A stretch of DNA of 64,000 bases from an uncultured Lentisphaeraceae bacterium (lineage in GTDB: Bacteria; Verrucomicrobiota; Kiritimatiellia; RFP12; UBA1067): contig CAYZYQ010000002.1 of the NCBI GenBank assembly GCA_964482645.1, positions 21,111-85,110 of the forward strand, given 5' to 3'. A program made the position numbers and the translations under genes. Below are positions 6,102 to 54,488 of the stretch, in pieces. Position 1 is the first letter of the stretch; every line of letters begins with the position of its first letter. Below the pieces are notes generated by a model, which made no database searches, had not been told where the DNA came from, and saw only the letters and a program-made list of their open reading frames with translations.

Positions 6102-7094
6102 ATGCGATATCTTTTCAAAAGATGTGGGCACCAGGAACTGGGTAGTATGGATGCCGATATGCGTCCGAAACGCGGACAGTATCTGCTGATGAAGATGACG
6201 CCGGAGGTGTTGTCGTTCTTTCCGCCACTTTCCATTACGCAGAAGAACGACTATCGGCTTGTTCCGTTTTTCCCGCTTTATTCTAGGACGAAGGTCTATT
6301 GCCGCTTTGTCTACCACAACGATAAGTTTCATGAGTCCACTGCGACGCAGCCACGAAACGAGTACCGTCTTTATCTGAACAGGGAAGTGCAGGGCGGCGA
6401 GTTGCGGTTTGTTGAGGGCGGGATTGTCGTGTTCCGTCTCGTGGACGAATCTGATTTCAACAGAGGAATGTTCCTTGATTACGCGGGCCCACAGGACGGG
6501 GAGCTTTACAGGGTATATGATGAACGACTACGAGCGGGCAGGCTTGATTCCGTAGGGAATTACGGTGTGTGTGACGGAGCGCTCAAGGATTTTGAATGTC
6601 GTGTCGCAAACGTCTCTAGCGAAACTTCAGATGTCGTGGTCTCGGAGACAGACATTGAGTACATCTCCAAGAACAGGGACGACGAGGCGGCGTTGTTCAA
6701 CGAAGTTTCGTTTCGTGATTTTGTGATGGTTGGCTACCGGAGGAAGTGCGCCGTCACGGGAACATCCATTGAACATGGTTCGTTGTGTAATCTTGAAACC
6801 GCCCATATCCATCCAAAGGCGCATGGTGGTACTTTCCTGCCGAGTAACGGGATGATGCTTTGCCGTGATTTCCACTGGGCGTTTGACCATGGCTTCTTTA
6901 CCCTTTCGGACGATTTGGTAGTCATCGTTTCAAAGAAGGTTTCAAGCGAAATGCTTGCTCCATACGACGGCAAGCGAATTTTTGTCCCTTCCAATCCATT
7001 TTTCCGTCCTGACATTGCAAGCGTGAGATGGCATCGCGAACATGTGTTTGAGTGCTTCGGGCAGATTCGGGCAATGAAAGTGGAACGCACATGA
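6102..7094 (+). CDS. HNH-family nuclease, putative restriction endonuclease with an N-terminal DNA-recognition-like domain
   Basis: ATG 6102 is preceded by GGAGAAGG, inside ORF 5934..7094. The C-terminal CAVTGTS...LETAHIHPKAHGG...NGMMLCRDFHWAFDHGFF is an HNH (HNH_2-like) motif. The gene sits between methyltransferase genes, and its stop overlaps the M2 start (ATGA). Confidence 0.75.
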   Translation: MRYLFKRCGHQELGSMDADMRPKRGQYLLMKMTPEVLSFFPPLSITQKNDYRLVPFFPLYSRTKVYCRFVYHNDKFHESTATQPRNEYRLYLNREVQGGELRFVEGGIVVFRLVDESDFNRGMFLDYAGPQDGELYRVYDERLRAGRLDSVGNYGVCDGALKDFECRVANVSSETSDVVVSETDIEYISKNRDDEAALFNEVSFRDFVMVGYRRKCAVTGTSIEHGSLCNLETAHIHPKAHGGTFLPSNGMMLCRDFHWAFDHGFFTLSDDLVVIVSKKVSSEMLAPYDGKRIFVPSNPFFRPDIASVRWHREHVFECFGQIRAMKVERT

Positions 7095-8152
7095 ACGTAA
7101 TTGATCTGTTTTCCGGATGCGGCGGGTTGTCCAAGGGATTCATGGATGCCGGATGCAGAGTGCTGCTTGGAGCGGATGTCGATCAGGCTGCTCTTGATTC
7201 GTTTGAAAAAAACCATCCGGGTTCGATTGGTCTTAGGAGAAGTCTTGCCGAAGAGGCAACGTTCGATAGAATGCGCGAAATCATCGGCGACAGAAAAGTG
7301 GATTTGATTGTCGGCGGACCGCCGTGCCAGGGTTTTTCACTTACCGGCCCGAGAAACTTCGATGATGAGCGCAACAAGCTGTATCTGTCGTATATCAAGG
7401 CCGTCGAGATGTTCAGACCGAAGGGATTTCTCATCGAAAACGTTCCTGGCATGGCAACGTTGTACAAAGGTATGGTAAAAGATGAAATCTTGAAACGGTT
7501 TACGAGGCTTGGCTACAATATTGATTGCAGAATTTTGTGCGCTGCAGACTATGGCGTACCTCAGACTCGCCGCCGTCTTGTATTCATTGGTGTTCGCAAA
7601 GAACTTAATGCCGTCTCGTTTCCGCGGCCTCTTCTTGAGCCGAGCGAATACGTCACGAGCCGCGAGGCCATCGATGACCTCCCGCCATTAACTGATTGTC
7701 TCGGTGAGGAAGTTTCGCGATACGACCGTCCGCCGCGGACGCAATACCAAAAACTCATGCGCGGCAGTTGTACGATACTGTCGAATCACACCGCAACCGC
7801 GCACAAGGATTTCGTCAAGGAAGTGATTGCCCAAGTCCCAGAGGGCGGAAATTACAAAGACCTCCCAAAAGGAGTTGGCGAACATAGGCGGTTTCATATG
7901 GCTTGGACAAGATGTGACGGACACAAGCCATCTCGCACGATTGATACAGGGCATCGCAATTATTTCCACTACGAATATAATCGGATTCCGACCGTTCGCG
8001 AATGCGCCAGACTACAGTCGTTTCCAGATGACTTTGTCTTCATCGGCACACGGACGCAACAGTATCGACAGGTTGGTAACGCGGTTCCACCTTTGCTGGG
8101 ATTCGTCCTTGCAAAACATCTGATGGGACTCGTGGAGGGGCGGAATGCCTAA
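7091..8152 (+). CDS. DNA (cytosine-5)-methyltransferase (M2)
   Basis: FSGCGGLSKGF, GGPPCQGFS, ENVPGM, QTRRRLVFIG, TVRECARLQSFPDDF, GNAVPP. Start is ATG 7091 inside ORF 7052..8152. Confidence 0.9.
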   Translation: MNVIDLFSGCGGLSKGFMDAGCRVLLGADVDQAALDSFEKNHPGSIGLRRSLAEEATFDRMREIIGDRKVDLIVGGPPCQGFSLTGPRNFDDERNKLYLSYIKAVEMFRPKGFLIENVPGMATLYKGMVKDEILKRFTRLGYNIDCRILCAADYGVPQTRRRLVFIGVRKELNAVSFPRPLLEPSEYVTSREAIDDLPPLTDCLGEEVSRYDRPPRTQYQKLMRGSCTILSNHTATAHKDFVKEVIAQVPEGGNYKDLPKGVGEHRRFHMAWTRCDGHKPSRTIDTGHRNYFHYEYNRIPTVRECARLQSFPDDFVFIGTRTQQYRQVGNAVPPLLGFVLAKHLMGLVEGRNA

Positions 8153-9380
8153 ACTCCGCACAATAGACCTTTTCGCCGGGTGTGGCGGACTGATGGACGG
8201 TTTTATGCAAAGCGGTCGTTTCGATACGCTTGCCTGTGTGGAGTGGGAGGAAGCACCATGCCGAAATCTCGTGAACCGCTTGAAAACGAAATGGGGACAC
8301 GCAAACGCCGAGAGGGAAGTCCTGCGCTTCGACATTCAGCGAACGGATGAACTGTTCTATGGCTACGACGATCCGAAGTTCGGACGTGGCGACGGCCTTG
8401 ACAAGCTCGTTGGCGGGATGAAGATAGATGTCATTATCGGCGGGCCGCCTTGTCAGGCCTATTCGCTTGCGGGTAGAATCCGCGACGAGCATGGTATGCG
8501 CGATGACTATCGTAACTATCTGTTCGAGAGCTATCTTGAAGTCGTTAAGCGTTACCAACCAGACTTCTTTCTGTTCGAGAACGTAATTGGGATGTTGTCG
8601 GCGGCGCCGGACGGAAGACCGATAACGAAAAAGATACGAGCAAAGTTTTCAGATGCGGGTTATGTCGTTCTCCCAGATTTTAGGGATGCGGTTTTTTCGC
8701 TTTCAGACTACGGCATCCCCCAAAATCGTCGTCGCATTATCATTTTGGGCGTTCGCGAGGAAAGTTTTCCGAATACGTCCGCAGATATCATTCGAGATTT
8801 CTATGGACGTATCATGCCATCATACCGTCAGCCGAAACGAACGGTTGAAGAGGCGATTGGCGATTTGCCCAAATTGATTCCGACGATAGAGAGGGGGAAG
8901 GTGGTCTATCATCGTCAAGGCGAACGAATCGTTCCCAACCATTTCCCGAGAAAGCACAGCGTTCGCGATGTCAAGGTGTTTAAGTTGCTTACCGAAGACA
9001 TCGAGCAAGGTCGATTTGAGTATACGTCGATTGATCGTTTGAAAAAACTGTATACGGAAGTCACGGGTAAAACAAGCAACATTCACAAGTACTACGTTCT
9101 CCGCCGTGATCAGCAGAGCAATACAATTCCGGCTCATCTGCATAAAGACGGATTTCGACACATCCATCCTGATTCAGAGCAATGCAGGACATTGACGGTA
9201 CGCGAAGCCGCTAGGCTACAAACTTTTGACGACGATTATGAGTTTTATGGAAGTATGGGCGAACAATACAAAATGATTGGAAACGCTGTGCCGCCTGCGT
9301 TTGCAAAAATTCTTGCGCGGGCGATATGTGAAATCCATATGAAGTATTGTCCGTGGAAGATACACGATCTAAACACCTAA
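8145..9380 (+). CDS. DNA (cytosine-5)-methyltransferase (M3)
   Basis: FAGCGGLMDGF, GGPPCQAYSLAGR, ENVIGMLS, QNRRRIIILG, TVREAARLQTFDDDY, GNAVPP. There is an 8-nt overlap with M2. Confidence 0.9.
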   Translation: MPKLRTIDLFAGCGGLMDGFMQSGRFDTLACVEWEEAPCRNLVNRLKTKWGHANAEREVLRFDIQRTDELFYGYDDPKFGRGDGLDKLVGGMKIDVIIGGPPCQAYSLAGRIRDEHGMRDDYRNYLFESYLEVVKRYQPDFFLFENVIGMLSAAPDGRPITKKIRAKFSDAGYVVLPDFRDAVFSLSDYGIPQNRRRIIILGVREESFPNTSADIIRDFYGRIMPSYRQPKRTVEEAIGDLPKLIPTIERGKVVYHRQGERIVPNHFPRKHSVRDVKVFKLLTEDIEQGRFEYTSIDRLKKLYTEVTGKTSNIHKYYVLRRDQQSNTIPAHLHKDGFRHIHPDSEQCRTLTVREAARLQTFDDDYEFYGSMGEQYKMIGNAVPPAFAKILARAICEIHMKYCPWKIHDLNT

Positions 9381-21790: not shown

Positions 21791-22513
21791 TTATTTCTCA
21801 AATGGGATTTGTCCGCTTCCTCTAATCGAAACGTGATGCCTTGTGCCGCAACCGATGACAACATGATCGTCGAGAGGGATGCCGACAAGATTCCCCGTTT
21901 CAATGAGGCGCTTGGTTTCGGCCAAGTCTTCGTTGCTGGGTGTTGCATCTCCGCTCGGATGTGTGTGTGCTACAATTACGGATGCCGCGCCAAGGCGTAT
22001 CGCCTGACGGAAAATATCTCTGGGATGAAGCGGCGTAGCATCAAGAACTCCTCTGAATACCAATACAGGTTCGCACAAAAGGCGCCCTTGGGTGTCGAGA
22101 TAGAGCGCAAACACGTTTTCCTGCTTCTCGTCGATTCCGACTGATAAAACCTGCCGCACAACATCGTCTGAAGACACGATCACACGTTTGAATGACCGTT
22201 GGGAAGTTCTGACATTGCGCTTTACAAGGGCAAACGCCGCAGCAAGCTGGACGGCGGCAACCTTTCCGACACCGGGAACTTTGGCTGCGACAATCTGCTG
22301 CCATGTCGCATCGACAAGGTTTGCCGCGCTGCCAAAATGCTTGATCAGCCTGTTGGCGAGATCGATTGCGCTCGACCCTTTTTGACCGGTACGGATGAGT
22401 ATCGCCAACAACATCGCGTCCGGCATCTCCCTGACCGGATCAGCCGAACGCATAAACACCTCGCGAGGGCGAGATTCTGGGGGCAAGTCCTTGATTTTGA
22501 GTGTTTCAGCCAT
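21791..22513 (-). CDS. radC: RadC-like JAB/MPN domain protein
   Basis: The N-terminal part reads IKDLPPESRPRE...MPDAMLLAILIRTGQKGSSAIDLANRL. It also contains GVGKVAAVQLAAAFAL, and the JAB motif is VAHTHPSGDATPSNED. Confidence 0.85.
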   Translation of the reverse strand: MAETLKIKDLPPESRPREVFMRSADPVREMPDAMLLAILIRTGQKGSSAIDLANRLIKHFGSAANLVDATWQQIVAAKVPGVGKVAAVQLAAAFALVKRNVRTSQRSFKRVIVSSDDVVRQVLSVGIDEKQENVFALYLDTQGRLLCEPVLVFRGVLDATPLHPRDIFRQAIRLGAASVIVAHTHPSGDATPSNEDLAETKRLIETGNLVGIPLDDHVVIGCGTRHHVSIRGSGQIPFEK

Positions 22514-23618
22514 CGTCCTTCATGCGGGCATAACACGCTTTTACAGTTTTGGAAGGTTTGCCGGCAGCCCTCTTGATATAGATGCCATTATCGGACGGTG
22601 AGTATCTGCACCTTTGCTCAAACACAAAGAATGGTTGTCGAATTGTTGGAGGCTCGGGCGATGGCGTGAAAGAATCAGTTGGGGATGGACTCTTCACGAA
22701 TGGATCTTTTGCATCGGCCCTTATTATCGCTCGCCCGACGAACTCGCCCAGTTTCACGGGCACAGCGTTGCCGATGATTTGTTCCACCTCCGACTTGGCT
22801 CCAACCATCACCCACTCTGCCGGAAATGTTTGAATGAGGCTTCGCTCTTTTGTTGTAAGGGGGCGAAGGTTCTTTGTGGTTACTGGTGCGGCATCGCCGG
22901 GATGCCCAGGATAGCCACTTGGAATCGGGCGATTCACACCTCTTACAGTTGGGCTTGGTTCGTCAATGCTGAAAATACCCCGCCGCGCATAACTGCGGGG
23001 ATGCCGATAATAAAAATCAATGTCGATGGAATTACCGAGATAATCGCGGATTGTCATCGGCTTGTCGGACTGCATTTCCTTGTAAATGTCTGTAAGAGAA
23101 ATCGATGGCTCTTTCAATGAGCCGACAACAACGACGCGCTTTCGTTTTTGAGGCGTCCCACACAATGATGCATCGAGAACCGCGATCGTTAGATGGTATC
23201 CCGCATCTGCAAACAGATTCAATGCTTTTTGGTAGATGTTGGCTTTGATGGCACGGTCAACGTTCTCCATGATAAAAAGTTGCGGTCGTATCTTGCACAC
23301 TATTTGGGCATACGCCGTCGTAAGTTCCGCACGACCACCACTCTCGTCACGTTTGCCCGCAGATGAAAAATCCTGACAGGGCGGTCCACCTACAATCACA
23401 GCCGGTTTCCATTTGCTGATTCGCTCAACAGAGGACTCGACATCCGAGAGATCCTGACGATACGCGGAATGTCCCGTGATGTTCTGATTGTAGAAGTTTA
23501 TGGCGGGCTGCCACCAGTCAAATGCGGCGACGACATCGAAGCCTGCATTTTGCAGTCCTTGCGACAAGCCGCCGCCACCGCAGAATAGATCCACCGTTCT
23601 AAACTTTTTCATCGTCAT
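22506..23618 (-). CDS. DNA (cytosine-5)-methyltransferase (M4)
   Basis: The motifs present are DLFCGGGGLSQG, GGPPCQDFSSAGK, ENVDRA, QKRKRVVVVG, TTKERSLIQTFP and GNAVP. The start is ATG 23618 or 23612, which overlaps the 3' end of the endonuclease gene. Confidence 0.85.
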   Translation of the reverse strand: MTMKKFRTVDLFCGGGGLSQGLQNAGFDVVAAFDWWQPAINFYNQNITGHSAYRQDLSDVESSVERISKWKPAVIVGGPPCQDFSSAGKRDESGGRAELTTAYAQIVCKIRPQLFIMENVDRAIKANIYQKALNLFADAGYHLTIAVLDASLCGTPQKRKRVVVVGSLKEPSISLTDIYKEMQSDKPMTIRDYLGNSIDIDFYYRHPRSYARRGIFSIDEPSPTVRGVNRPIPSGYPGHPGDAAPVTTKNLRPLTTKERSLIQTFPAEWVMVGAKSEVEQIIGNAVPVKLGEFVGRAIIRADAKDPFVKSPSPTDSFTPSPEPPTIRQPFFVFEQRCRYSPSDNGIYIKRAAGKPSKTVKACYARMKDDG

Positions 23619-24687
23619 CGAAAATATCCTTTGAGAAGAAGAGTATTGCGTCAAAACGGCGTTCAGGACTCAAGAACTTATGTCCGCCACCAAGTACGAT
23701 CTTCTTGATTTCGTCTCTTTTGACGATTGGTTTCGTCAGCCTGTCACAGGTCATGAATTGATGTGTCTGCGCTCCACGATAAGCGAATTCCTTGTCACCT
23801 TGATTGCCGAACAGCATGGCATCATAAATAGGAATCTGAAACACTCGCCCTTGTGTCACGAATTCGTACAGGAAACGCACAAGTCTCAATGCGGCCCTTT
23901 GCGGACGAGATATTTCATTTCCCATGTCGAGGCACGATGTATGCATCAAACGCGAAAGTGCGAAATCACTCCACACGAACACATCAAGGCAATTGTCGGC
24001 AAGAACAGGACTTTTACCTTTTGTTTTCCAAACTGGTTGTATCACAAGCGGCTTCTGAATCGCCTCATATTCAAGTAGAAACCTGTCAAGCGCCGCAAAA
24101 ATCGCTTCGCGTTTCGGACGCATCTCATAGACGCTACTCCAGTCACGGATATTACCGCATACCGGCAAGAACAACTTTTTTATGGACTCACACTGCTCTG
24201 CATTCAGCCGTGAGGCGATGCCCAATGCCACATAGCGCATGGTTGCAGAGCGTACAACAATTTCCGAGCCATATTCGCTTTCAGACAGAGACGAAGTCCC
24301 ATTGTCAGGCAATGTTGTCAGCTTTATTTCAAGTGGAGTCAAATACCGACCTGTAGCTTCTTCGGTTATAACTAGATCAATCTTCTCCATTGCCTCATGA
24401 ACAAGCGAACGATAAGGATCAAATGGAACCTCAAATAGAAACTTCAATTTGTCATTTGGCAGACTTGTACCGAAAACCAAGTCAAACGGAATTTCAGATA
24501 TCTGTGGCTTGCCGGCCGTCACTGAAATGTAGTTTGCGGCGTGTTTGGCATCCCTCATGTAACAACATAGCGCGGCTGGAAATGTGTTGTTGAATTGATT
24601 TTTACCCCAACAATCAGGATCGGCAAAGTTCCTATTTGAATTTTTAAGGCCGTACAAGCCAGGCTTTTCGACAGTCGTGTTCATCAT
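23599..24687 (-). CDS. type II restriction endonuclease (N-terminus recalls the HindVP family; unverified)
   Basis: 362 aa, lying immediately upstream of and overlapping M4. The N-terminus PGLYGLKNSNRNFADPDCWGKNQFNNTFPAALCCYM resembles, from memory, HindVP-family endonucleases. AT-richer codon usage. Confidence 0.6.
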   Translation of the reverse strand: MMNTTVEKPGLYGLKNSNRNFADPDCWGKNQFNNTFPAALCCYMRDAKHAANYISVTAGKPQISEIPFDLVFGTSLPNDKLKFLFEVPFDPYRSLVHEAMEKIDLVITEEATGRYLTPLEIKLTTLPDNGTSSLSESEYGSEIVVRSATMRYVALGIASRLNAEQCESIKKLFLPVCGNIRDWSSVYEMRPKREAIFAALDRFLLEYEAIQKPLVIQPVWKTKGKSPVLADNCLDVFVWSDFALSRLMHTSCLDMGNEISRPQRAALRLVRFLYEFVTQGRVFQIPIYDAMLFGNQGDKEFAYRGAQTHQFMTCDRLTKPIVKRDEIKKIVLGGGHKFLSPERRFDAILFFSKDIFDDDEKV

Positions 24688-32156: not shown

Positions 32157-34025
32157 ATGAAGAGAGTTCTGTTTTGGACGTTAACGTGCGTGTTGGGCGT
32201 ACAGGCGGGCTTGGTCGAAGAGACGAAGTCGCGGCCGGTGCTGGCGGGTGCGGTCGTGCTGGCGCCGTTCGAGACAGTGTCGGCGAAAGTGACGAATCTG
32301 GGCGCGACGATCAACAACCCGCTCGTGCCCATGCTTGTCTGCACGGCGCTCCAGCAGCAGCTGACGCAGACCTACGGGGCGTTCCGGTCGGATGCGCCGA
32401 TGGGCTGGCTGAGTTATGTGCAGACGCCCGCGTTCGACATTGCGGCGACGAACGACGATCGTGTGGCCGTGGCCGATCTGGCCGAGATTGTCTTCGTCTA
32501 TCCGAGCGTCGACAAGGCGGCGGGGATGCTGTTGAACAATCCGGGATCGACGAAGACGCCCGACGGCGCCATTCGTCTGCTGCCGAGCGAAACGCGCCCG
32601 AAGGAATTGTATGCGCGGTTTACGGCGGATGGCCGCCACTGCGCGTTCGCGTCGTCTGCCGCGCTTGCGGCGCAGGCGTTGGCGGACTTCGCGAAAGTCG
32701 ATCGGTCGGACGCGCCGGGCGGGACGCGCCCGTTGGCGACGGTCTCCGTGACGACGCGCGGGTTGACGGTCATCGCGTCCCATTATCGGGGGCTTGACGT
32801 TGCCGTGAACACGGAGGAGAAGGAGGCGTCTGCGGCGGCCGTCGAGCGCAAGATCCAGGAGATGCTGACGGCGCGGAACAAGCGTCAGATGGCGCAGTTG
32901 GGACAACTCGCGGGCATTGAGATGACGCTGGATCTGGATGCGCAGGGGTTGTCGGTGGTCGGCAAGGCGCAGGCGAAGCCCGGCCGCACGACGGCGACGG
33001 CGGGGTTCCGTCTCCCGGCGGGCGCGTTCGACCGGCTGCCGTCGTCCGCGATGCTCTTCGGCGCGGGGAGTGTCTACGACATGAGTGGCTATGCGTCCGC
33101 CGCCGACTTCACGGCAGACCGGACGTTCTTTACGACGCTCGTCGAATGTCTGCCCGAACTCGCGGCACAGGACAAATCGAAAAGCGTTTCGCAGACGTGC
33201 GTGGTCGAGTTGAAGAATATGCTCGTGGAGGCGTTGTCGGCTTTTCCCGTGCCGACGGCGACGGACTGGGAGGCGACGGCCGTGGTGTGCGATGTGGCGC
33301 GTCATCCCGCACTCGTGTCCGTGGGCGAGCGGGCGGCCTCGGTGCAGTGGAACGCCGTGGGCGACAAGATGATGGCGCGTTTGGCGGCCTGGCTGGAGAA
33401 GGTTTACCCGAAAACGAAGTTTTTGACCGTGGCCGGCGCGGGCGACTACCGGATTGATTGCCACGCGGTGATTGACCATGCGGGCGCTCAGGCGGGTATC
33501 AAACCGACGGATGCGGCGGCGAAGGATCTGGCGGACGGCAAGAAGAATCTCGCGGACATTCTAGGCGGCGCGACGTTGCAGATTCGGACGACGGGCGAAG
33601 GGACGGCGTACCAGACGACGCTGGCGTATTCGGGTTTCAAGTCGGCGGCGGGGGGAATGACGCCCGAAGCGCGTTTGGCGGCCGCCTTGCCGGAAGTGGC
33701 GAAGGAACGCCCCTCCGCCGCGTTCTACGCGACGCCCTATGCGTTTGTGCGCGACGTCGTGCTGCCAATCGTCGTCAAGTTGACGGAGAAGGAGACGTCG
33801 GAGCAGTGTGCGGCGATGATGAAGGCGATGACGCCGGCGGCGGCGAACAGCGCCTGGGCGGGCGCGACGTGGAACGACGCGGACGGGTCGATCCGTTTCG
33901 TTTCCCGCATTACGTCGAACGAACTCAAGAACTTCGGCGCGGCGTTCAACGCTTTCACGGCGGCGTCGATGTCCGCCGCGCTGAGCGGCGATGATGCGGA
34001 AGAAGACGCCGAGGACGACGAATGA
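32157..34025 (+). CDS. secreted hypothetical protein with an acidic C-terminal tail
   Basis: Signal-like N-terminus MKRVLFWTLTCVLGVQAG. 622 aa in a GC3-rich frame. Ends in GDDAEEDAEDDE. No family recognised. Confidence 0.5.
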   Translation: MKRVLFWTLTCVLGVQAGLVEETKSRPVLAGAVVLAPFETVSAKVTNLGATINNPLVPMLVCTALQQQLTQTYGAFRSDAPMGWLSYVQTPAFDIAATNDDRVAVADLAEIVFVYPSVDKAAGMLLNNPGSTKTPDGAIRLLPSETRPKELYARFTADGRHCAFASSAALAAQALADFAKVDRSDAPGGTRPLATVSVTTRGLTVIASHYRGLDVAVNTEEKEASAAAVERKIQEMLTARNKRQMAQLGQLAGIEMTLDLDAQGLSVVGKAQAKPGRTTATAGFRLPAGAFDRLPSSAMLFGAGSVYDMSGYASAADFTADRTFFTTLVECLPELAAQDKSKSVSQTCVVELKNMLVEALSAFPVPTATDWEATAVVCDVARHPALVSVGERAASVQWNAVGDKMMARLAAWLEKVYPKTKFLTVAGAGDYRIDCHAVIDHAGAQAGIKPTDAAAKDLADGKKNLADILGGATLQIRTTGEGTAYQTTLAYSGFKSAAGGMTPEARLAAALPEVAKERPSAAFYATPYAFVRDVVLPIVVKLTEKETSEQCAAMMKAMTPAAANSAWAGATWNDADGSIRFVSRITSNELKNFGAAFNAFTAASMSAALSGDDAEEDAEDDE

Positions 34026-39000: not shown

Positions 39001-39028
39001 TTGACAAGAAAAAAAAAATGCATATAAT
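39001..39028 (+). promoter_or_regulatory. promoter of giant protein 1: TTGACA, 16-nt spacer, TATAAT, with an A10 tract in the spacer
   Basis: TTGACAagAAAAAAAAAAtgcaTATAAT was read directly. The A-run is 39009-39018. Confidence 0.6.
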
Positions 39029-39095: not shown

Positions 39096-41987
39096 ATGAC
39101 CGTAAAACATGTGGCATGTGTGGCGTTCGGACTCGCGCTGGCGGGATCGTTGGCGGCGGAGACATGGTATTTGAAGGGCGGTGGCGCACATCGCATCGTG
39201 GACAACGGAAAGAGCGACTGGGGTTACGACTGGTACGCGACGGGCGAGAACGGGAACTGGACGAACGCCCTTGGCGCCGTCGGCGTTCCCGCCGAAGGGG
39301 ATGTGGTCGTCATTCCGGCGAAGGATCCGGCCGCAGACAAAGACACCGTTACGTTTTCGGCCAGCGGCGGGAGCGATGGCAGTCGGACGAAGCCGATCGA
39401 CGCATTGATCGCGTTGGGGAAGACGTGTCTGCACCAGGGGACGCTCGTGCTGCGCGCAGGCGGCGCGGGGTTGTCCATCGGCGGAAACAGCATCTGGTGG
39501 TCGGGGATTGAATGCGTGCCCCGTGGCGAGGACGATTTAGACGCGCAAAGCGTTGTGCTCACCGTGCCGAAGAACGTGACCTTTCAACTTCAGAAGGGTG
39601 TCGTCAGTTCGGGTCCGTCATTTACCAAGGCGGGCGACGGCACGTTCGTGAACTTCTGCGAGGGCGACACGGGCTACGCATTGACGGATTTATATAACAT
39701 GACCGTCCGATTGCAGGGCGGTACGTTCGTGAACAACATGTCGCGCCCCGCGAAGGGCGTCCGTTTCGTCTTTGATTCGGACGATCCAAATGTTCGCCTC
39801 GCGCTGGGGCGAACGGGAGCGGCCAACTATTGGAATTGGGCAATCGAGGATGGCGCGATCGAGGAGACGGACGCGGTTCAGAATACGGAACACGGCATCA
39901 CGACCACGCATACGGATCGGAACCACTATCTCACGATCTGTGGAACGCCGACGGTCAACCCGATGCGGTTCACGGGGGCGTTCTACGAAAAGGCGGGATT
40001 GGTGTGGAATCCCACGACGGCGGATGCGGAATTCGTGATCGCGAAATCAATTTCGCCGACGACGGGCGGGCTGCTCGTGTCGAACGGCGTAGTTCGCCTT
40101 TCCGAGGGTGCCACATTTTCCAAGTTGTCGCGGTTGGACGTCGCGGGCGCCACGGCGCGTCTCGTTGTCGATTCGGGTGCGGGCGTCGCCTTTCAGGCGC
40201 AGGACGTCCGTGTGTCCGATGGTGCAAAAATCGTTGTCGGGCAGGGCGTGACGATTTCGTTCACGGCCGCAACAGTTGACGGTGTCGCGCTCGCGCCGGG
40301 ATTCCACACGGTGGCCACAGCGGCGACGTGGTTGGAAGGCGACGGTTGCGTGTATGTGTCGGGCGGCGAAACGCCGCAAATGAGTGCGGACACATGGACG
40401 GGCGCAGGGGCGGACACGGCGTTGACAACGGCCGCGAACTGGTCAACAGGTGAAACGCCCGATTTCACGACAGGTGGCCTTGTCGCTACGTTCGCGACGG
40501 GCGGTTCACGCGCGACGTTCGTGGGCGACACGATGCTCCGTTTGGCCGGCATCGTCTTCACGCAGCCGTTCACGCTGGACACGGCGGCGGATGCGAAGGG
40601 GATGTTGCTGCTGGGCGCGAACGGCATTTCGACTCCGGCGACCGAGACGGCCCAGACGTATGGCATTGGCTGGCCAATCGTGGCCGTTGCACCGCAGACG
40701 TGGACGGCTAAATCGAACACGACTGTCCGCTACACGACACCGGTGTCGGGATTGTCCACGTTCGATCGGATCGTCGTGGACGGCGAAGGGCGAACGGAAT
40801 TTCTCGCGGCGAACACGTTTCCGAACGACATGATGCTCACGAACGGTACCGTCCGTTTCGCGGGTGACAACGCGATGGGGGCGGCGACGGGTACGACGTG
40901 GGGCGATTCCGATCGGATGCTGCTCGTCTTCGGCGGTGGCGTGAACGTACGTCCTCTACAGTTGTTCATGCCGAGCGGGAGCAAGGACAACCGTATCCGT
41001 TTCGAGGCCGGGACGACGAACCGTTTTGAAGGGAAGGTCATGTTCGGTATCGAGTCTGGTTCTCCCTATCGGACGATGCAGACGGCGATGTTGTTGGGAC
41101 GGGACGCCGAGGTCACGTTTGCGGGCGGGTTGCACGTCCATTATCAGAACCACAACATCGCGGGCCCCGCGCACATCATCGTCACGAATCGGCCGCTCAT
41201 GGTACGTGATCGGTTCTGCCTCTATGCCAAAGATCTCGTCTACGACCTCTGCGTGGCGAACAATCGCGTGAGCGGCAATTCGAGTTTCTGGAACGCCGGA
41301 ACGCTCCGTACTTTGGTTCCATATGCACTTGAAAAGAATGCGCAGGGACAGGTGTCGCGTGTCCAGATGAACGGAACCGATTTTACGCTCGACCTCTGCG
41401 GCAACGACCAGTCGATGGGCGTCCTGGACGGGCGCAACGGGACGATCACGAGCGCGACGCCCGCGTTCTTCCACGTCGCGCAGAACCACATTCCGCAGTC
41501 GTGGGACAATGGGAATGTCTCGGGCAAGCCTAATGTCGGCATTACGAACGCCGTCGTCTTCACGGGCGGGGCGGGGCTTTCGCTCGACGCGGAATTGAAG
41601 GATTTCCCGCACGTGCTGACGGCGACGAGTTCGTCGTCGGGCATGGTGCAGGTGACGTCAGGCCGTCTGACGCTTGCCGCGCCGAACGGGTCGTGGACGA
41701 ACGCGACGGCGGCCGTCGTGGGCGGCGGCACGCTCGTGCTGGAACACGCGCAGGCGATCGGGCGCGAGACAGACATCCTCTTCGAGGGAACGGACGGGCG
41801 GCTTGAACTTGCGGCCGGCGTGGCGCAGAAATGCCGCGACCTCTATTTCGACGGCGTTCGCCAGCGTCCCGGCACGTACGGCAGTTCGCAGAGTGGTGCG
41901 CAGCACAAAGACGACGCGCGTTTCACCGGCACGGGCGTGCTGAACGTCCTGTCCGACGGCAAGGGCTTCATGCTCATCCTTCGTTAA
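39096..41987 (+). CDS. giant secreted beta-helix / autotransporter-associated beta-strand-repeat (PATR-like) protein 1, C-terminal GFMLILR
   Basis: RBS AGGAG and signal peptide MTVKHVACVAFGLALAGSLAA. Contains PATR-like units (TKAGDGTFVNF..., repeated GG(T/A)L motifs). 963 aa. Confidence 0.7.
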   Translation: MTVKHVACVAFGLALAGSLAAETWYLKGGGAHRIVDNGKSDWGYDWYATGENGNWTNALGAVGVPAEGDVVVIPAKDPAADKDTVTFSASGGSDGSRTKPIDALIALGKTCLHQGTLVLRAGGAGLSIGGNSIWWSGIECVPRGEDDLDAQSVVLTVPKNVTFQLQKGVVSSGPSFTKAGDGTFVNFCEGDTGYALTDLYNMTVRLQGGTFVNNMSRPAKGVRFVFDSDDPNVRLALGRTGAANYWNWAIEDGAIEETDAVQNTEHGITTTHTDRNHYLTICGTPTVNPMRFTGAFYEKAGLVWNPTTADAEFVIAKSISPTTGGLLVSNGVVRLSEGATFSKLSRLDVAGATARLVVDSGAGVAFQAQDVRVSDGAKIVVGQGVTISFTAATVDGVALAPGFHTVATAATWLEGDGCVYVSGGETPQMSADTWTGAGADTALTTAANWSTGETPDFTTGGLVATFATGGSRATFVGDTMLRLAGIVFTQPFTLDTAADAKGMLLLGANGISTPATETAQTYGIGWPIVAVAPQTWTAKSNTTVRYTTPVSGLSTFDRIVVDGEGRTEFLAANTFPNDMMLTNGTVRFAGDNAMGAATGTTWGDSDRMLLVFGGGVNVRPLQLFMPSGSKDNRIRFEAGTTNRFEGKVMFGIESGSPYRTMQTAMLLGRDAEVTFAGGLHVHYQNHNIAGPAHIIVTNRPLMVRDRFCLYAKDLVYDLCVANNRVSGNSSFWNAGTLRTLVPYALEKNAQGQVSRVQMNGTDFTLDLCGNDQSMGVLDGRNGTITSATPAFFHVAQNHIPQSWDNGNVSGKPNVGITNAVVFTGGAGLSLDAELKDFPHVLTATSSSSGMVQVTSGRLTLAAPNGSWTNATAAVVGGGTLVLEHAQAIGRETDILFEGTDGRLELAAGVAQKCRDLYFDGVRQRPGTYGSSQSGAQHKDDARFTGTGVLNVLSDGKGFMLILR

Positions 41988-44302: not shown

Positions 44303-44332
44303 TTGACAAGAAGAAAAAAAAATGGCTAAAAT
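44303..44332 (+). promoter_or_regulatory. promoter of giant protein 2: TTGACA, 18-nt spacer, TAAAAT, with an A9 tract in the spacer
   Basis: TTGACAagaagAAAAAAAAAtggcTAAAAT was read directly. The A-run is 44314-44322. Confidence 0.55.
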
Positions 44333-44395: not shown

Positions 44396-47125
44396 ATGCA
44401 CATCAGGAAAACAGGAATGGGTTGTGTGCTGGCCGGCGTATTGGCGTCGACCGGGTTCGGCGGGGCCGTGGTGTCGGACGATGGCGCGACGCTCATCTTG
44501 TCGGCCGACGCGGGTGAGACGCTGACCTACTCGGACGCCTTGGCCGGCACGGTGACGAAGATTCTCAAAATCGGGAAAGGGCGCTATGTTTTCGCGCCCA
44601 CGACGCATACGTTCGGCGGCGCGATTGAAATCCAGGAGGGTGTGCTGTCCGGCAATCGCAGCCATTTCGGCAACCCCTCCGCCTGGAAGATTCTGCCGGA
44701 GGGGAGTGTGACGGAACATTCCGCCGGTACGGCGGGCGCGACGCTCCTGTTCGACGTGCGGCCGGACGACTACGCGGCTGGCGAGAATGAAAAGCCGACG
44801 GGGGCATTGGAAATCGGCGGTTCGGGTTTCGAGGGGCAGGGCGCGTTCTACTTCACGATGCTCCCGAACGGAAACGGCTCTGGCAATACCCTCAGCACGT
44901 CGCACTGGGCATTCAAGGGTGGCGTGAAACTGACGGCGGACACGACCGTGGGCGGCGGCCGTTTCGGCTTCAATACGATGGACATGCAGGGGTACGACCT
45001 CTACACGTACTGCACGAACGGGCAGGCGCAGTACGAAATGTATGGGCAAATCAAAAACGCGGGGAACATCCGCCTCAAGAAGGGGGAACTTCTTTTTGAG
45101 CGGGTCGCGGGGTTTTCACCCGCCGTGACGACGCAGTGCGTTGCGATGGCCGATGGGACGACCATACGGATGTACGATTCGCCGACGGACAATGCCATGA
45201 CGACGCTGGGGATTCGTCTGGAGGATAACGCCACGGCCAAGATTCTGGCGACGGGCGGCTCCGACATCCACTACGGGCGGAACGTTTGGAAGGGGGACGT
45301 ACATCTGGACAGGGGGCGGCAACTGAAGTTGATGGCGGATCGCGAGATGACGCTTGACGGCGCAATGGACGGCTCGGCGGATCTCTACAAAGGCGGTTCG
45401 TACGCCGCGACGATCACGTCCAACGCGACGCACGAGTTCCGTTCGCTGACGGTCGAGAAGGGAACGCTGGCACTCGGGCGGAACGCCGACGATACGCCCT
45501 ATTCCGTCACGAACATTTGGGCGGTGGCGGGTTCAGCGGCGGGCTGGGATTGTGCGCGGCTTGACTTGGGGGTGGATCTGCGGACGATGTCGGCGGTCCG
45601 CACGTCGTCGTCGGAGGTCATCCGTATCGGATACAATGGCGGATCGGGCAATCAGTACGGCATCGTCTCGATTGGCGACGGGGCCGTGGTGTCGAACGAG
45701 TTTATCATCGGCATGGGTAATGACACGCGGAACGCCATGGGCGCCGTGTACATGGGCGACGCGACGGTCTACTGGAAGGCGGGTTCCGGTAACGACGGCT
45801 TCATCGGCTCAAATGGAAAAGGTTCCGGTTTCTTCCTCCAGAACGGCGGCACGTTGACGCATACCGGCTATATGAATTTGGGGGCGCACGGTCGCGGCGT
45901 TTTTGTCCAGCGGGGCGGTCTGCATGAGATTCTCGGTTGGAATCCGCTCAAGATCGCGCGTACGGGTGCACCGTCGTATGGACTCTACCATCAGTCGGGC
46001 GGTACGCTCAAAGGGCAGAACATTTGGATGTGTTACGACTATCGCACGAATTGTGTGGATGTCCAGGCGGTCGTTACGACGACGGGGCGCGGCTCGCGCA
46101 TTGAGATGGACCGGACGCGCCTGTTCGTGTCGCGCCGGAACGTGGAGGGTGTCGTCAATGTGGCCGACGGCGCGGTTTGGTGCGGGCAGATCTATAAGGA
46201 TGTCGAGGCGAAGGACGTTATCTGGGACATGGTTAAGGACATCTGCCCGGACACGAAACTCTACGTGAACCTGAACGGCGGCATTCTGACGGCGAAGACG
46301 GCGGACGTGCTGGGCGCGGACGCTTCCCATGCGCCGGATCGCGTGACGGTCTACGAAGGCGGCGTGACGCTCGACGCCTCGGCTGCCGATCTTGTCTTCC
46401 ATGCGCCGTTCGAGAAGCCCGTCGGTCAGGGCGTTGCGTCCATCGCGCTGCCGGCGAACAGCGTCACGAATTTCAACTACTATGTCGGCTCGCCGCGCGT
46501 TCGCATCAAGAGCGCGACCGGCACAGGTGCCACGGCGATGGCGGACTTCAACGAGAAGACACGCCAGGTCGAGCGTATCCGCGTGATGAGTGCCGGTTGC
46601 GGCTATGCAGACGCGACGGCGACGATCGAAAACAACGTGTTTGGCGAAGTGGCGTTGGGCCAGGTTGTGCTGACGGAACTGTCCACGACGGGCGGCGTCA
46701 CGAAGACGGGCGCGAAGACGGCCACGCTGACGGGGGCGAACACGTACGGCGGTACGACGCGCCTCGCGGGCGGCACGTTGGCGTTCACGCATGAAGACGG
46801 CTATCCGGGCGGTGTACTTGAAATCTCCGCCGCCGTGTTGATGGGGGCGTCCGACGCGCCACCGCTTCTGAAAGCCGTGCGTTTGGCGTTCAATTCGGGC
46901 TGTGGCATTCGCGTGACGGAGGCCGAACGGCTCGACAAGGATATGCGGCGCGGTCTCCGGGACGTGATCGAGACGACCACGCCCTTGACGTCCCTGCCGC
47001 CCGTGACGTATGTCGATTCAACGGGCGCGGAGATTTCGCCCGGCGGCTGGACGTTCCTGCTGGACGCCGGCGGCTGTCGCGTCCGCTTCGCCTACCAGCG
47101 CGGCACGGTGCTGATTCTTCGTTGA
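44396..47125 (+). CDS. giant secreted beta-helix / PATR protein 2, C-terminal GTVLILR
   Basis: RBS AGAGGTG and a signal-like N-terminus MHIRKTGMGCVLAGVLASTGFGGA. Contains a canonical PATR unit VTKTGAKTATLTGANTYGGTTRLAGGTLAF. 909 aa. Confidence 0.75.
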   Translation: MHIRKTGMGCVLAGVLASTGFGGAVVSDDGATLILSADAGETLTYSDALAGTVTKILKIGKGRYVFAPTTHTFGGAIEIQEGVLSGNRSHFGNPSAWKILPEGSVTEHSAGTAGATLLFDVRPDDYAAGENEKPTGALEIGGSGFEGQGAFYFTMLPNGNGSGNTLSTSHWAFKGGVKLTADTTVGGGRFGFNTMDMQGYDLYTYCTNGQAQYEMYGQIKNAGNIRLKKGELLFERVAGFSPAVTTQCVAMADGTTIRMYDSPTDNAMTTLGIRLEDNATAKILATGGSDIHYGRNVWKGDVHLDRGRQLKLMADREMTLDGAMDGSADLYKGGSYAATITSNATHEFRSLTVEKGTLALGRNADDTPYSVTNIWAVAGSAAGWDCARLDLGVDLRTMSAVRTSSSEVIRIGYNGGSGNQYGIVSIGDGAVVSNEFIIGMGNDTRNAMGAVYMGDATVYWKAGSGNDGFIGSNGKGSGFFLQNGGTLTHTGYMNLGAHGRGVFVQRGGLHEILGWNPLKIARTGAPSYGLYHQSGGTLKGQNIWMCYDYRTNCVDVQAVVTTTGRGSRIEMDRTRLFVSRRNVEGVVNVADGAVWCGQIYKDVEAKDVIWDMVKDICPDTKLYVNLNGGILTAKTADVLGADASHAPDRVTVYEGGVTLDASAADLVFHAPFEKPVGQGVASIALPANSVTNFNYYVGSPRVRIKSATGTGATAMADFNEKTRQVERIRVMSAGCGYADATATIENNVFGEVALGQVVLTELSTTGGVTKTGAKTATLTGANTYGGTTRLAGGTLAFTHEDGYPGGVLEISAAVLMGASDAPPLLKAVRLAFNSGCGIRVTEAERLDKDMRRGLRDVIETTTPLTSLPPVTYVDSTGAEISPGGWTFLLDAGGCRVRFAYQRGTVLILR

Positions 47126-50602: not shown

Positions 50603-50633
50603 TTGACGGCAATAAAAAAAAAATGGGTATAAT
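50603..50633 (+). promoter_or_regulatory. promoter of giant protein 3: TTGACG, 19-nt spacer, TATAAT, with an A10 tract in the spacer
   Basis: TTGACGgcaatAAAAAAAAAAtgggTATAAT was read directly. The A-run is 50614-50623. Confidence 0.55.
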
Positions 50634-50672: not shown

Positions 50673-53600
50673 ATGGCGTACACAAAGAAAACTGAATGGT
50701 TGAAAAGAGCGCATCGGCTGGAAACGGTCGTGCGGCGCGTGGCGTGGAGTGTCTGCGCGTTTGCCGTGGTCGGAACGGCCGGTGCGGCGGAAATTGCCTT
50801 TTCGGGCGGCGGGGGCGATGGTGATCTCGCGTCGCCCGCCAACTGGACGGGTGGCGTCTTGCCAGGTACGGACGACGTCGCGGTCGTCGATGTCGGAACT
50901 TCGGGTGTTTCGTACACGTTGTCCGCTCCCGTGACGTTCGGCGGTCTCGTCTTTACGGACAACGCGGATGCCGCCGTCGAACTCGCGTCGGAGAGTACGC
51001 TGACGCTGGGCACGAACGGTCTGGTCTGCCGCGTGGCGGGCGGCATCGCGCTCAAATTGCCGCTGGCCGTCGCGGGCGAGCAGACGTGGAACTTCGGCGG
51101 TGGTCAAGCCAAGTTCTACAAGACGATCGCCGGCACGGATCCGCTGACGCTGGCGAACGCGAGGGGGCTTTGGCACTATTGGTCGCCGCGCTATGACGGC
51201 AAGATTTCATACACGGGCATCAAGCGGTGGAGCAACAAGGATGATTCCCGGCCGACGCATATCAACTTCTACGAGCCGGACTGCAAATAGGCAAATGAAA
51301 TCGCCCTGCTGGACTGGTGCGAAGTTCGCCTCCTTTTCGGCGGGCCTGTCAGTTTCGCGCAGCTCTTTCCGGGGATGGATCCGCTGTCGGTCGGGCAGGG
51401 CTTCGGCATTGAAGCCGTCGTGGCGACAAAGGACGAAGGTGCGGCCGGCGGCGTGGGCCGTCCGACGCTGACCGTTGGCGCGGGCGAGGCCGTCAAGATG
51501 TGGCAGTTCTGCCTGGGCGGCGGCGACATGATCCAGACGAACGGCTCGTTCACGACGCAGGATGCATTCTGGATCGGAAACAACTGGTACTACAACTACA
51601 CGTACGGCGAGCCGTGCCACTACTACTTGAAGGGCGGGGCTTTAGAGACGAAGACGCTGAATATTGGTGAGTACGGAAGGGGTGTCAATCGTCTCGTCCA
51701 GTCGGGCGGTACGGTGACGGTTTCTTCGACGATTGTCATGGGCGGCGGAAACCAGACGGATGAGAACTGCCTGTCTGAATGGTGTCAGGACGGCGGCACG
51801 GTGACGGTGACGTCCGTGTCCGCGCCGAACAACAACTACGGCACGCTGCTCTACTATCCGGAGGGGCAGTGGGGGGATGGACGGGCGTTGTACGAACTGA
51901 AGGGCGGTACGCACGTGACGCCGCGCCTCCTGTTCGGCACGAACTTCGACCCGACGCCGGACACGATGACAAAAGATCGTGGGTCGCACATGCCCTGCCA
52001 CAATTCGTACGGACTCTTCGACCTCGCGGGCGGGACACTGGACGTCGGCGTGGGCGGCATCGCGTCCGGCTGGAACTGGAATCCCGACGGCTGGATTTCG
52101 CCGGCGACGAACGCCTATGCCGACGTGCGTCTGCGCAAAGGTACGGTTCGGACGGGCACGAGCGCGACGACCGTGCCGCTGCGCATTCCGCGTTCGGATG
52201 CCGCCGTCGAGTGGAACACGGCGACGGACACCGCCCACACGGTCTTCGCGCCCGTTCTCGGCGACGGCAATCTCGTCAAGACGGGCGCGGGGACGCTCGC
52301 GTTGACCGACGCGACGGCGTTCAACGGTTCGATCGAGGTACGCGAAGGTTCGCTGCGCATTCTCGGCAAGGGCGGGGCTTCGGGCGAAGAGACGGCGCCC
52401 GTGGAGACCGGACACGACTTCTGGCAGTGGACGGGCGACGCGGCCCAGGCGGCCGGCGCGACGAACGGCGCGGCGGTCTCCATCTGGACAGACCTCCAGC
52501 ACGGTGTCGCGGCCACGAACGCGAACATCTACCTCCCCCACGAAGGAGGAAAGGACGTGCGCTACGCCTGTCCGACGCTTGTCGCCGGGGCGTTCAACGG
52601 ACACGCCGCCCTCCGCTTCAACGAGGCGATGCTGACCGTGCCGGCAGACGTGAACCCCTTCGTCGGTGCGAAGGAGATGACGATTGTTCTGGCGTTCAAG
52701 ATGACGGCGGCGGGCATGGAGCCAATCGACCGGGGTGAACGCGCATGGTACAGCTATTACGTTGACGGAACGCATATGCTGAATCCAGGTAACGGGGACT
52801 ACAAAGGAGCCTGGGGGCCGTGGTTCCAGTGGTGTAGTGGCAACCGTCTCAAGTTCATGGTGGATGTCGGTGGAGCTGTGGAGGCTGGCGATCACATTGT
52901 CGCGTCGCAAGAGGGTGTATCGCTTAAAGACGATGTCCATGTGGCCGTGGCGACTGTGAGCGAGGCCGACGGTATCACGCTGCTCGTCGATGGCGACTTC
53001 ACGAATCGCGTGTGGACGGGAGCGTACCATCCGTTGTTCAACGGTTACAACAATGCAAAGGCGCTTCCGCTCATGCTCGGCTGCCTCGTGAGCGACGCGG
53101 GAAACGCACGGACGATCAGCGGAATGCATTTGGGCGAAATGCGCATCTACACGAACGCGTTGTCGCGCACCATGATGTCGGATCTTTCCGCCGAGCTGTA
53201 CACGAAGTACAACGGAAAGCTGGAAGGACTTGCCAACGTTGTCTCCGGATGCGAGGGCGCCGTTGCGGGCGAACTCGTCGCGCCGGACGCGCCGGTGATT
53301 CCGGCGGATCTGCCCGCGCCGGCACAGCGCTGGACGGCCGATTCGCTGGCGGCGACGCATACGGACGGCGCGGCGGTCGAAAGCTGGGCGACGACGGACG
53401 GGACGCGCGCGCTGGCCGTCGAGGACGGGTGCACGGCGCCGATGTTCGTGGCGCAGTCCGCGAACGGACACGCCGCCGTCAGGTTCGACGCGGATGCGCA
53501 GACGTCGCTGGGCGCTCCGGCGAAGGACGTGTTGGCGCAGACGGACTGGAACAACTGGACGATGGCCGTCGTCTTCCGCGCCACGGAAGGGGCGACGGGA

Positions 53601-54488
53601 CGCACGGGCGTGATGGAAGGGCGCGGGCTCGTCTCGATGATGAAGGACGAGACGAGCAAGAACGCATTCCAGTTTGCACTCGTCACGAACGGCGAACTGC
53701 GCGCCTATTCGTCCGAGGAGAGCGTCTTCCGCCGTCGCCCGTTGCGGCTCGACGACGGCGCCGTCCATGTGGCCGTCTTCACGAGCGACATGGCAGGACG
53801 TTACTGCGGCAAGCAGGACTGCATTTTCGTCGTCGATGGCATTGTGAACGAATACAAGCCATGGTCGAATCCCGAACTCATGAAGACCGATGCGTTCCGT
53901 CTGCGCCTGGGGCAGCTCGTCAACGGCAAGGGCTTCTTCTCCGGCGAGATTCTGGAAGTGCGGTGGTACACGGCGGTGAACGCGCCGCTGACGATGGAGC
54001 AGACGCTCGGCGTGTGCACGGAACTGGCGACGACGTACGGCGTGCCGCTCTATCCGCGCGGAAACTTCGGCCCTGGCAAGGTGGCGGCGTATGGCCTTGG
54101 GGCGACGAACGTCTCCGTGGCGGCGGGCGCGACGCTCGTCTTGCCGCAGGCCGTCCAGTCGCCCTACACGGTCGGCGCGGGACAGACGCTGACGTTGGAC
54201 GGTGGCGAGGTCATGGGGCCGCTCGTCGTGTCGGACGGTGGCGCGTTGCGTCTGACGTACGGACAGATGGCGGAAATCGAATCGCTGAAAGCCGTCGACG
54301 CGGTGCGTCTCGACGTCGTGGGCCTGCCATCGAACCGTGGCTCGTTCACGCCGCTTGCGCGAGTCGGCACGGCGGACATGGCGGAGGCAAGCTGGACGGT
54401 TGTAGGACGTCGTGGCAGCACGGTGGAAATCCGCGACGGCGTGCTGGGCGTCGTCTCGCGTAACGGCACCGTCCTGATTCTCCGCTGA
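50673..54488 (+). pseudogene. giant beta-helix / PATR protein 3 with two LamG-like domains and C-terminal GTVLILR, interrupted by one in-frame TAG at 51288-51290
   Basis: ORFs 50673..51290 and 51375..54488 are in the same frame, and the 84 nt between them has no stop and stays GC3-rich. Contains a PATR unit NLVKTGAGTLALTDATAFNGSIEVREGSLRIL and two LamG-like blocks (...NGHAALRFNEAML..., ...NGHAAVRFDADAQ...). Confidence 0.6.

Follow-up and report, generated by a model that had tools for sequence, protein, structure and literature searches.

A short C-terminal tail ending in arginine on large exported proteins of Kiritimatiellae, a candidate sorting or surface-retention tag

We analysed a stretch of 64,000 nucleotides from an uncultured Lentisphaeraceae bacterium, a gut/rumen member of the Kiritimatiellae (contig CAYZYQ010000002.1 of assembly GCA_964482645.1), hereafter the window, in which three large genes, here called pA, pB and pC, close with nearly the same heptapeptide directly before the stop codon (the tail, Table 1). 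The original prediction, made from the sequence of the window, had read these three endings, and they are found exactly in the translated open reading frames (ORFs), which terminate at 41987, 47125 and 54488. It described the carriers as divergent giant proteins. They are indeed barely alignable by BLASTP, with best pairwise E-values of 0.075 (pA/pB), 0.17 (pA/pC) and 5e-4 (pB/pC, over a PATR-like stretch), but they are large (909-1271 aa) rather than giant. The codons of the three tails differ, as had been noted, and the DNA downstream of the three genes is unrelated. The conservation of the tail is therefore at the protein level. Searches of the full proteins against Pfam and NCBIfam returned only single PATR/TIGR02601 repeats in pB and pC, and nothing in pA.

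Table 1. Positions in the window of the tail-bearing genes, their C-terminal elements and the restriction-modification genes.
Feature	Position	Strand	Remarks
pA gene	39096..41987	+	963 aa; Sec-type signal peptide MTVKHVACVAFGLALAGSLAAE; beta-rich; no Pfam domain
pA C-terminal strand-turn-tail element	41922..41984	+	FTGTGVLNVLSDGKGFMLILR
pA tail heptapeptide GFMLILR	41964..41984	+	stop TAA 41985-41987; ending ...SDGKGFMLILR
pB gene	44396..47125	+	909 aa; signal peptide; beta-helix; one PATR repeat
pB C-terminal hairpin and tail	47048..47122	+	WTFLLDAGGCRVRFAYQRGTVLILR
pB tail GTVLILR	47102-47122	+	stop TGA 47123-47125; ending ...AYQRGTVLILR
pC gene	50673..54488	+	1271 codons; signal peptide, PATR, LamG-like regions; in-frame TAG 51288-51290
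pC C-terminal strand-turn-tail element	54423..54485	+	VEIRDGVLGVVSRNGTVLILR
pC tail GTVLILR	54465-54485	+	stop TGA 54486-54488; ending ...VSRNGTVLILR
C5-cytosine DNA methyltransferases (four)	5153-6079, 7052-8152, 8145-9380, 22506-23654		
HNH endonuclease	5934-7094		
HindVP-type restriction enzyme	23599-24687		

The most likely start of pA is the Met at 39096, which follows an ORF extension without signal peptide. We favour it because a perfect sigma-70-like promoter (TTGACA-16-TATAAT, 12/12 match, 39001-39028) sits inside the longer ORF. A sigma-70-type promoter-like site also precedes pB (44303-44332, 11/12 match), and TTGACG-19 nt-TATAAT, spotted by eye, lies upstream of the true start of pC at about 50603-50633. 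These near-perfect promoters suggest that each of the three genes is a strongly expressed, separate transcription unit. The in-frame TAG of pC cuts the gene in two, a 205-aa fragment with the signal peptide and an ORF of 1037 aa. All eight homologues compared, one of them 98% identical, have a Trp (TGG) at this position, and the homologues P0023-P0030 are 1239-1272 aa long. The TAG is a nonsense mutation or marks a pseudogene, or else it is an error of sequencing or assembly.

The position of the tail is not expected by chance. Translation of the window in six frames gives 2321 stop-terminated segments, and only those of pA, pB and pC end in [LIVMF][LIVM]3R. A looser pattern that allows Lys also catches HtpG (...ALMLK), a cytoplasmic false positive. 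Over the window and the related loci (325,101 residues), the 7-residue tail pattern was matched 22 times at the C-terminus vs 3 times internally, when about 0.01 terminal matches would be expected from chance. In the pA family, 105 of the 150 best representatives end exactly in G..h.hR (h stands for a hydrophobic residue), against 0.11 expected from the internal rate of the same motif within these 150 proteins. In related DNA of Kiritimatiellae (566 kb), the ending also closes 36 of 1244 long frames. The enrichment beyond the three proteins, on which the original prediction had staked its case, is thus evident both in these 36 carriers and in the pA family. An exact-DNA scan of metagenomes for GTVLILR followed by TGA gave 24 matches. 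The 19 that lie in frames of at most 130 aa are the chance baseline, whereas five end ORFs of 626-2206 aa, of which four or five are new carriers.

The tail is under purifying selection, i.e., it is kept in the orthologues of pA, pB and pC while the flanking sequence changes. The pA superfamily comprises 708 clusters at 50% identity (E<=1e-3), and relatives down to about 30% identity retain the tail flush with the stop codon. Among the 45 of the best 150 representatives that lack the exact ending, 15 fit [GAS]..h.h[RK], 12 retain the strand but end in another residue, and 18 remain. About half of the latter are evident fragments or frameshifted translations, and the rest are near-variants (GLTVIAR, GLIGIVR). 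We also picked 124 pA relatives by an upstream family motif only, i.e., blind to the tail. Counting back from the C-terminus, they have G at -7 in 91% of cases, a hydrophobic residue at -4 in 98%, at -3 in 85% and at -2 in 96%, and R or K at -1 in 81% and 9%, respectively. Positions -6 and -5 are variable, the latter being hydrophobic in 69%. The distance from the upstream motif to the C-terminus of pA relatives is mainly 12-14 residues (range 11-16, with an outlier at 27). The variant tails GTVITFR, GLSINFR and GTMISIR reduce the invariant core to G-x-x-h-x-h-R-COOH.

The other two families behave likewise. The tail is kept in 14 of the 15 full-length homologues of pB, at identities from 97% down to about 25-36%, with endings such as RGTVLILR, RATTIILR, RGTVVIFR, RGTMMIFR, RGTTVIVR, RGTQIIIR, IGLMLLLR, RGLLLVFK, TGFCILLK, YATTLIVK and RRMHLIIR, and ...LVISVQ as the single exception. 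The homologues of pC (98% to 27% identity) end in NGTVLILR, NGTLLVFR, SGLTIIFR, FGSSILIR, SGTFIVIR or RGLLFVVH. A continuation past the terminal Arg is almost never seen in the relatives of any of the three proteins. The motif first written for the three proteins, G-[T/F]-[V/M]-L-I-L-R, is therefore right in being a C-terminal heptapeptide but too narrow: the tail is more degenerate, G-x-x-h-x-h-[R>K]-COOH, and usually follows a beta-strand and a short turn.

The spread of the tail was studied in the 566 kb, which consist of the loci of pB relatives and of loci added later. The taxonomic breadth given here comes from these homology-guided loci. The loci of pB relatives all come from metagenome-assembled genomes (MAGs) of gut, rumen or environmental Kiritimatiellae, some of them labelled Lentisphaerae or Verrucomicrobia by their submitters. 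Single-linkage clustering puts the 36 tail-bearing long frames into 13 families, and one of these probably stems from a chance frame. The tail is thus a modular, unannotated C-terminal tag that occurs on at least 12 unrelated families and in all Kiritimatiellae MAGs sampled. Tail-bearing genes often adjoin one another (loci L008, L051 and L053). The domains upstream of the tail are diverse: a carbohydrate-binding-module-like (CBM-like) domain (domain III of polysaccharide lyase family 4) with LamG; Flg_new_2 with fn3 and DUF4886; Laminin_G_3; and three PA14 with GLEYA, PATR and LamG in a single architecture. Several carriers have no Pfam domain at all, and in others a Metallophos or acetyl-esterase head is fused to a pA-like module. 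For example, P0037 (1729 aa) has an acetyl-esterase-like N-terminal half and, as its C-terminal half, a pA-like module of about 750 aa with the tail. A C-terminal module of the same kind and size, with the tail, follows a purple-acid-phosphatase/Metallophos head in P0044 (1574 aa, L049 10001-14725). These two proteins suggest a stalk-plus-payload architecture. The original prediction had seen in the tail a tag for PATR/beta-helix cargo. This applies to pB and pC, which have PATR repeats, but the cargo also includes LamG, PA14/GLEYA, CBM-like and fn3-DUF4886 proteins and the Metallophos and esterase fusions.

The public records of tail-bearing proteins are essentially unnamed. A profile of the last 42 residues, compared with an index of 5.8 billion proteins, gave 21 candidates, of which five are fragments at E<=10; the word index used is unsuited to so short a motif. 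Two giant pB relatives from Kiritimatiellae (1588-1814 aa; L016 2931-8375 and L017 85-4851) end in another conserved sequence, ...H[RH]FFKVEV[KE]L[GK][DN]R, instead of G..h.hR, and the lineage may thus have a second C-terminal signal.

Beyond the tail, the families have little in common. When the C-terminal 130 residues of the families of pA, pB and pC were compared profile to profile with hhalign, only the final 15-20 residues aligned between families, with a consensus of roughly G-h-L-x-V, a turn, and G-x-x-h-h-h-R (G.GvL.V-(turn)-G..hhhR in the pA family). There is therefore no common C-terminal domain of the type IX secretion system (T9SS) kind. This strand-turn-tail element is the only region that the pA family shares with the pC family. 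With the pB family, the pA family also aligns over one PATR-like repeat that lies further upstream. The consensus of the tag is thus a beta-strand, a turn of 3-6 residues, and G-x-x-h-h/x-h-R-COOH flush with the stop codon.

We modelled pB and pC as monomers with AlphaFold2, using shallow multiple sequence alignments (9-12 sequences). The pB model (mean predicted local distance difference test, pLDDT, of 85.8) is a beta-helix, whose best Foldseek matches are weak and correspond to the autotransporter passengers Hap, Hbp, SepA, Ag43 and pertactin. A confident hairpin is built from strands 885-890 and 895-900 (pLDDT around 91-92), and residues 901-909 (QRGTVLILR) are left as coil at about 64. 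In the model of pC (pLDDT 67.5) the hairpin 1016-1027 is placed, and GTVLILR (1031-1037) is coil with a pLDDT below 50. The strands next to the tail are placed at about 77-92 in the two models. The models of two unrelated families hence predict that the tail does not pack as a strand but stays free, as a highly hydrophobic peptide.

The carriers are exported. Each of pA, pB and pC has a Sec-type signal peptide, and all three are therefore Sec-exported. The association with signal peptides that the original prediction proposed to check holds for nearly all complete carriers (106 of 120 by a crude test). Other signal-peptide proteins in the window and the loci are without the tail, including glycoside hydrolases (GH2, GH3, GH36, GH71 and GH123-like), a rhamnosidase and a pectate-lyase-like protein. 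Only part of the exported proteome is therefore marked by the tail. In locus L049, a GspD-type secretin of the type II secretion system (T2SS; 1883-4852), with small membrane proteins on either side, is encoded 5 kb from a tail-bearing gene, which shows that a secretin pathway is present in at least one carrier organism.

The genes between the carriers are of housekeeping type (PurL, RNase Y, thiamine genes, a PseB-like dehydratase and OadA), and the window also encodes glycosidases and restriction-modification enzymes. No sortase-, exosortase- or rhombosortase-like gene was matched in its 64 kb, as had been remarked for the first two. The window is dense in restriction-modification genes, at 5153-9380 (+) and 22506-24687 (-). 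At 32157-34025 (+) it encodes a 622-aa signal-peptide protein without the tail and without Pfam or NCBIfam match, which has a strongly acidic C-terminus, ...GDDAEEDAEDDE.

PEP-CTERM, LPXTG, GlyGly-CTERM and T9SS tags are recognised by a strict C-terminal position, selection, modularity, presence on a subset of exported proteins, and a non-packed conformation. The tail has these five properties. Related cargo in other organisms ends differently: a PATR protein (L022 15999-17372) closes with a textbook PEP-CTERM anchor, PEPSTYGFGLGALALAAAAIRRRRK, and L050 (15743-16552) has the barrel of a classical autotransporter, PF03797, which frameshifts seem to have broken up. We therefore favour, as on balance probable if not by much, a tag that sorts the protein or retains it at the surface after Sec export. 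The cargo consists of proteins exported by Sec, most of them very large, which are adhesin-like or bind glycans and belong to many unrelated folds. The last 7-9 residues would stay outside the globular fold of the monomer, as a free hydrophobic peptide prone to form a beta-strand and ending in Arg and the alpha-carboxylate. An envelope component would then capture this tail in trans, by beta-strand augmentation and recognition of the Arg and carboxylate, and either move the protein across the outer membrane or hold it at the cell surface. Capture by augmentation is suggested because the tail is a free beta-strand with an obligatory free carboxylate. Neither a membrane helix nor a transmembrane strand could be made from so short a peptide. 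The most concrete candidate for the reader of the tail, though itself rather improbable, is the first beta-strand of an Omp85/BamA-type protein: the core of the tail matches the core of the signal by which outer-membrane proteins (OMPs) are recognised, and short peptides of Llp bacteriocins pair with that strand. A PDZ-type carboxylate-binding domain, e.g., that of the T2SS protein GspC, would be an alternative, and we count the secretin near a carrier in favour of a sorting role.

Several observations weigh against this interpretation. The genomes were sampled by homology rather than by a census of whole proteomes, and the signal-peptide test was heuristic. No partner gene recurs in the carrier neighbourhoods and the window, which contain housekeeping, carbohydrate-active enzyme, restriction-modification and AAA/DUF4143 genes. 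Around 8% of the pA relatives end in F, D, E, Q, N, H or Y, so the Arg is not absolutely required, and where it is present it takes the place of an aromatic residue. The last folded strand is only 3-6 residues from the tail, and AlphaFold may have missed an edge strand; the shallow alignments and the mediocre model of pC add to this concern. Finally, positions -5 and -3 of the tail are mostly hydrophobic, unlike those of the amphipathic beta-signal of OMPs. The earlier suggestion of an unrecognised secretion, sorting or attachment tag nonetheless agrees with the lock on the C-terminus, the conservation, the modularity, the signal peptides and the unpacked models; localisation, cleavage and partner are what we infer.

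A more specific form of the sorting interpretation is that barrel-less passengers use a barrel in trans, their tail pairing with beta-strand 1 of BamA or of another Omp85 protein (TamA- or TpsB-like). The beta-signal of OMPs has the consensus zeta-x-G-x-x-[aromatic/hydrophobic]-x-[aromatic/hydrophobic] (bioRxiv 10.64898/2026.09.25.754295), and G(-7), h(-4) and h(-2) of the tail are in register with its G-x-x-h-x-h. A short C-terminal peptide on the soluble, lectin-like Llp bacteriocins also pairs with BamA beta-strand 1 (bioRxiv 10.64898/2026.09.25.754295), and pB is a beta-helix with weak matches to passengers and no barrel domain. Yet the tail ends in Arg, its usually hydrophobic -3 and -5 make the strand non-amphipathic, and a stretch of 5-6 residues would not reach across the membrane. 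None of the carriers was seen to adjoin an Omp85 gene. The only OMP-like candidate of the window, of putative identity, ends canonically (...LALGLRCRF). We regard this form as rather unlikely. The terminal Arg and the hydrophobic -3 and -5, together with the lack of a barrel, also speak against a plain signal for substrates of BAM, the machinery that assembles beta-barrels. Still more doubtful is its extension to a general display route of Kiritimatiellota, in which the one-strand beta-signal would dock on an Omp85 protein (BamA, TamA or a dedicated paralogue) that translocates or anchors passenger-like proteins. The tail could instead be plain structure, i.e., the last edge or cap strand of a C-terminal sheet or beta-helix, or a strand exchanged between the subunits of an oligomer, fibre or coat, with no machinery involved. 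It directly follows a beta-hairpin, sequences of the TVLIL type strongly favour beta structure, and G-T-h-x-h resembles the G-T-L-x-L strand of PATR repeats, of which pA, pB and pC have PATR-like segments; self-association would account for the free end. This we hold to be unlikely, given that AlphaFold leaves the tail unpacked in both modelled families, that the tail also follows domains other than beta-helices (DUF4886 esterase-like, CBM-like) with no common C-terminal domain, and that a structural strand need not stop exactly at Arg in at least 12 unrelated families.

Three further explanations carry much less weight. PDZ proteases, such as Prc/Tsp and DegS, read free non-polar C-terminal strands, and the strictly free C-terminus would fit a motif that is recognised by, or protects from, a periplasmic PDZ protease (Prc/Ctp, HtrA), as a degron or a maturation site. 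However, a degron would not be expected to be maintained on surface-type proteins that number in the hundreds and are abundant and strongly promoted, and the terminal Arg is atypical for these PDZ domains, which makes this explanation very unlikely. It is more improbable still that the carriers are Llp-like toxins blocking the BamA of competitors by mimicry of the beta-signal. Lectin-like cargo with a short C-terminal peptide resembling a beta-signal is indeed the architecture of Llps, but the carriers are many paralogues of 600-2200 aa with enzyme or adhesin domains, encoded among housekeeping genes and without immunity genes. The motif of Llps, [ar/h]-x-[ar/h]-x-[ar/H], also has no Gly and has an aromatic cap (bioRxiv 10.64898/2026.09.25.754295). 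Finally, the motif is short and many carriers are of PATR-type ancestry, which might evoke coincidence, functionless shared ancestry or a DNA-level element at gene ends. The probability of this is close to nil in view of the terminal-enrichment statistics, the different codons and downstream DNA, and the unrelated families; chance and a DNA-level element are effectively refuted.

Kiritimatiellae, which degrade polysaccharides in guts, rumens and sediments, are abundant and almost uncultured, and a large share of their biggest secreted proteins is without annotation. The tag provides a simple sequence rule to predict the surface and secreted proteome of the lineage, and would point to an undescribed sorting machinery. 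It bears on the puzzle of how PATR proteins that resemble autotransporters, but lack both a barrel and a PEP-CTERM anchor, are displayed by bacteria of the Planctomycetes-Verrucomicrobia-Chlamydiae (PVC) group. With only seven residues it is directly testable, and might serve as a display tag. If it were a beta-signal acting in trans, the clients of BAM/Omp85 would extend beyond barrels, and if Kiritimatiellota generally displayed proteins through a barrel in trans, this would be a new route of outer-membrane secretion or anchoring for hundreds of cargo families.

Our incomplete coverage of the literature on Kiritimatiellae, the PVC group, protein sorting and autotransporters yielded no description of the tail. 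The sorting-domain models of Pfam and NCBIfam (June 2026) did not match the full pA, pB and pC, nor did they match the C-terminal 80 aa of these proteins at permissive thresholds (E<=10 for NCBIfam and E<=1 for Pfam). The tag resembles PEP-CTERM, LPXTG and GlyGly-CTERM in being a lineage-restricted C-terminal tag with a basic last residue on many paralogous secreted proteins. It differs from them in having only 4-5 hydrophobic residues, with no segment of transmembrane length and no signature motif, and the PEP motif, transmembrane helix of about 20 aa and Arg/Lys cluster of PEP-CTERM (TIGR02595/PF07589) are absent. The original prediction was thus correct in setting aside anchors of the PEP-CTERM and LPXTG type. 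Two other resemblances did not hold. KGFMLILR and PFTLVVR recall the prepilin cleavage motif G/FTLIE, but this lies at the other end of the protein, and the tails lack both the Glu at +5 and a helix after it. An Lpp-type cross-link between a C-terminal Lys and peptidoglycan does not fit because the conserved residue is Arg.

Substrates of the type I secretion system have no signal peptide, a C-terminal signal and often RTX repeats, whereas pA, pB and pC have signal peptides and no RTX match. The PATR/beta-helix passenger of classical (type Va) autotransporters is found in pB and pC, while pA is without PATR match. The 12-stranded PF03797 barrel is absent from all three, which have the heptapeptide instead, and the AlphaFold models of pB and pC end in a small beta domain and the free tail, without barrel.

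The comparison with the beta-signal of OMPs is closer. It had been dismissed because the tail does not end in an aromatic residue. The last residue is indeed Arg, but the dismissal was premature since the core matches G-x-x-h-x-h in register, at the extreme C-terminus and in the pA, pB and pC families alike. Both are beta-strand-forming and need a free end. The Arg stands one residue past the hydrophobic dyad, R or K being last in about 90% of pA relatives, and no barrel or match to an OMP family lies upstream; the cargo consists of soluble beta-helix, LamG, PA14 and other proteins. A comparator for the beta-signal of the lineage may be found in the window at 543-1442 (-), which encodes a signal-peptide protein of about 299 aa with an alternating sequence rich in aromatic residues and a canonical OMP-like ending, ...DLTILALGLRCRF. 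Sequence searches of Pfam, NCBIfam and PDB gave no match for this protein, which may be a novel outer-membrane beta-barrel. The peptides of Llps and L-type pyocins are, like the tag, short C-terminal peptides on soluble proteins of carbohydrate-binding type, unstructured until strand pairing. Llps are small Pseudomonas bacteriocins, whereas the carriers of the tag are hundreds of large resident paralogues of Kiritimatiellae.

The C-terminal domain of T9SS substrates (Por_Secre_tail, PF18962/TIGR04183, or the type B domain) is a folded domain of about 80 aa (about 70-100 aa) that is restricted to Bacteroidota and the Fibrobacteres-Chlorobi-Bacteroidetes group. It is not matched in the tails, and the tag of Kiritimatiellae shares only 15-20 residues between families. 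The likeness lies in a tag carried by only part of the Sec-exported proteins, which are surface or secreted proteins with diverse folds and are often huge. In the T9SS domain, too, a basic residue comes after a final hydrophobic strand, and the extreme C-terminus matters. The tag thus seems to belong with the C-terminal protein-sorting tags, with a sorting machinery that we infer, and in Kiritimatiellae it would stand in for the autotransporter barrel, PEP-CTERM anchor or T9SS C-terminal domain of comparable cargo in other phyla.

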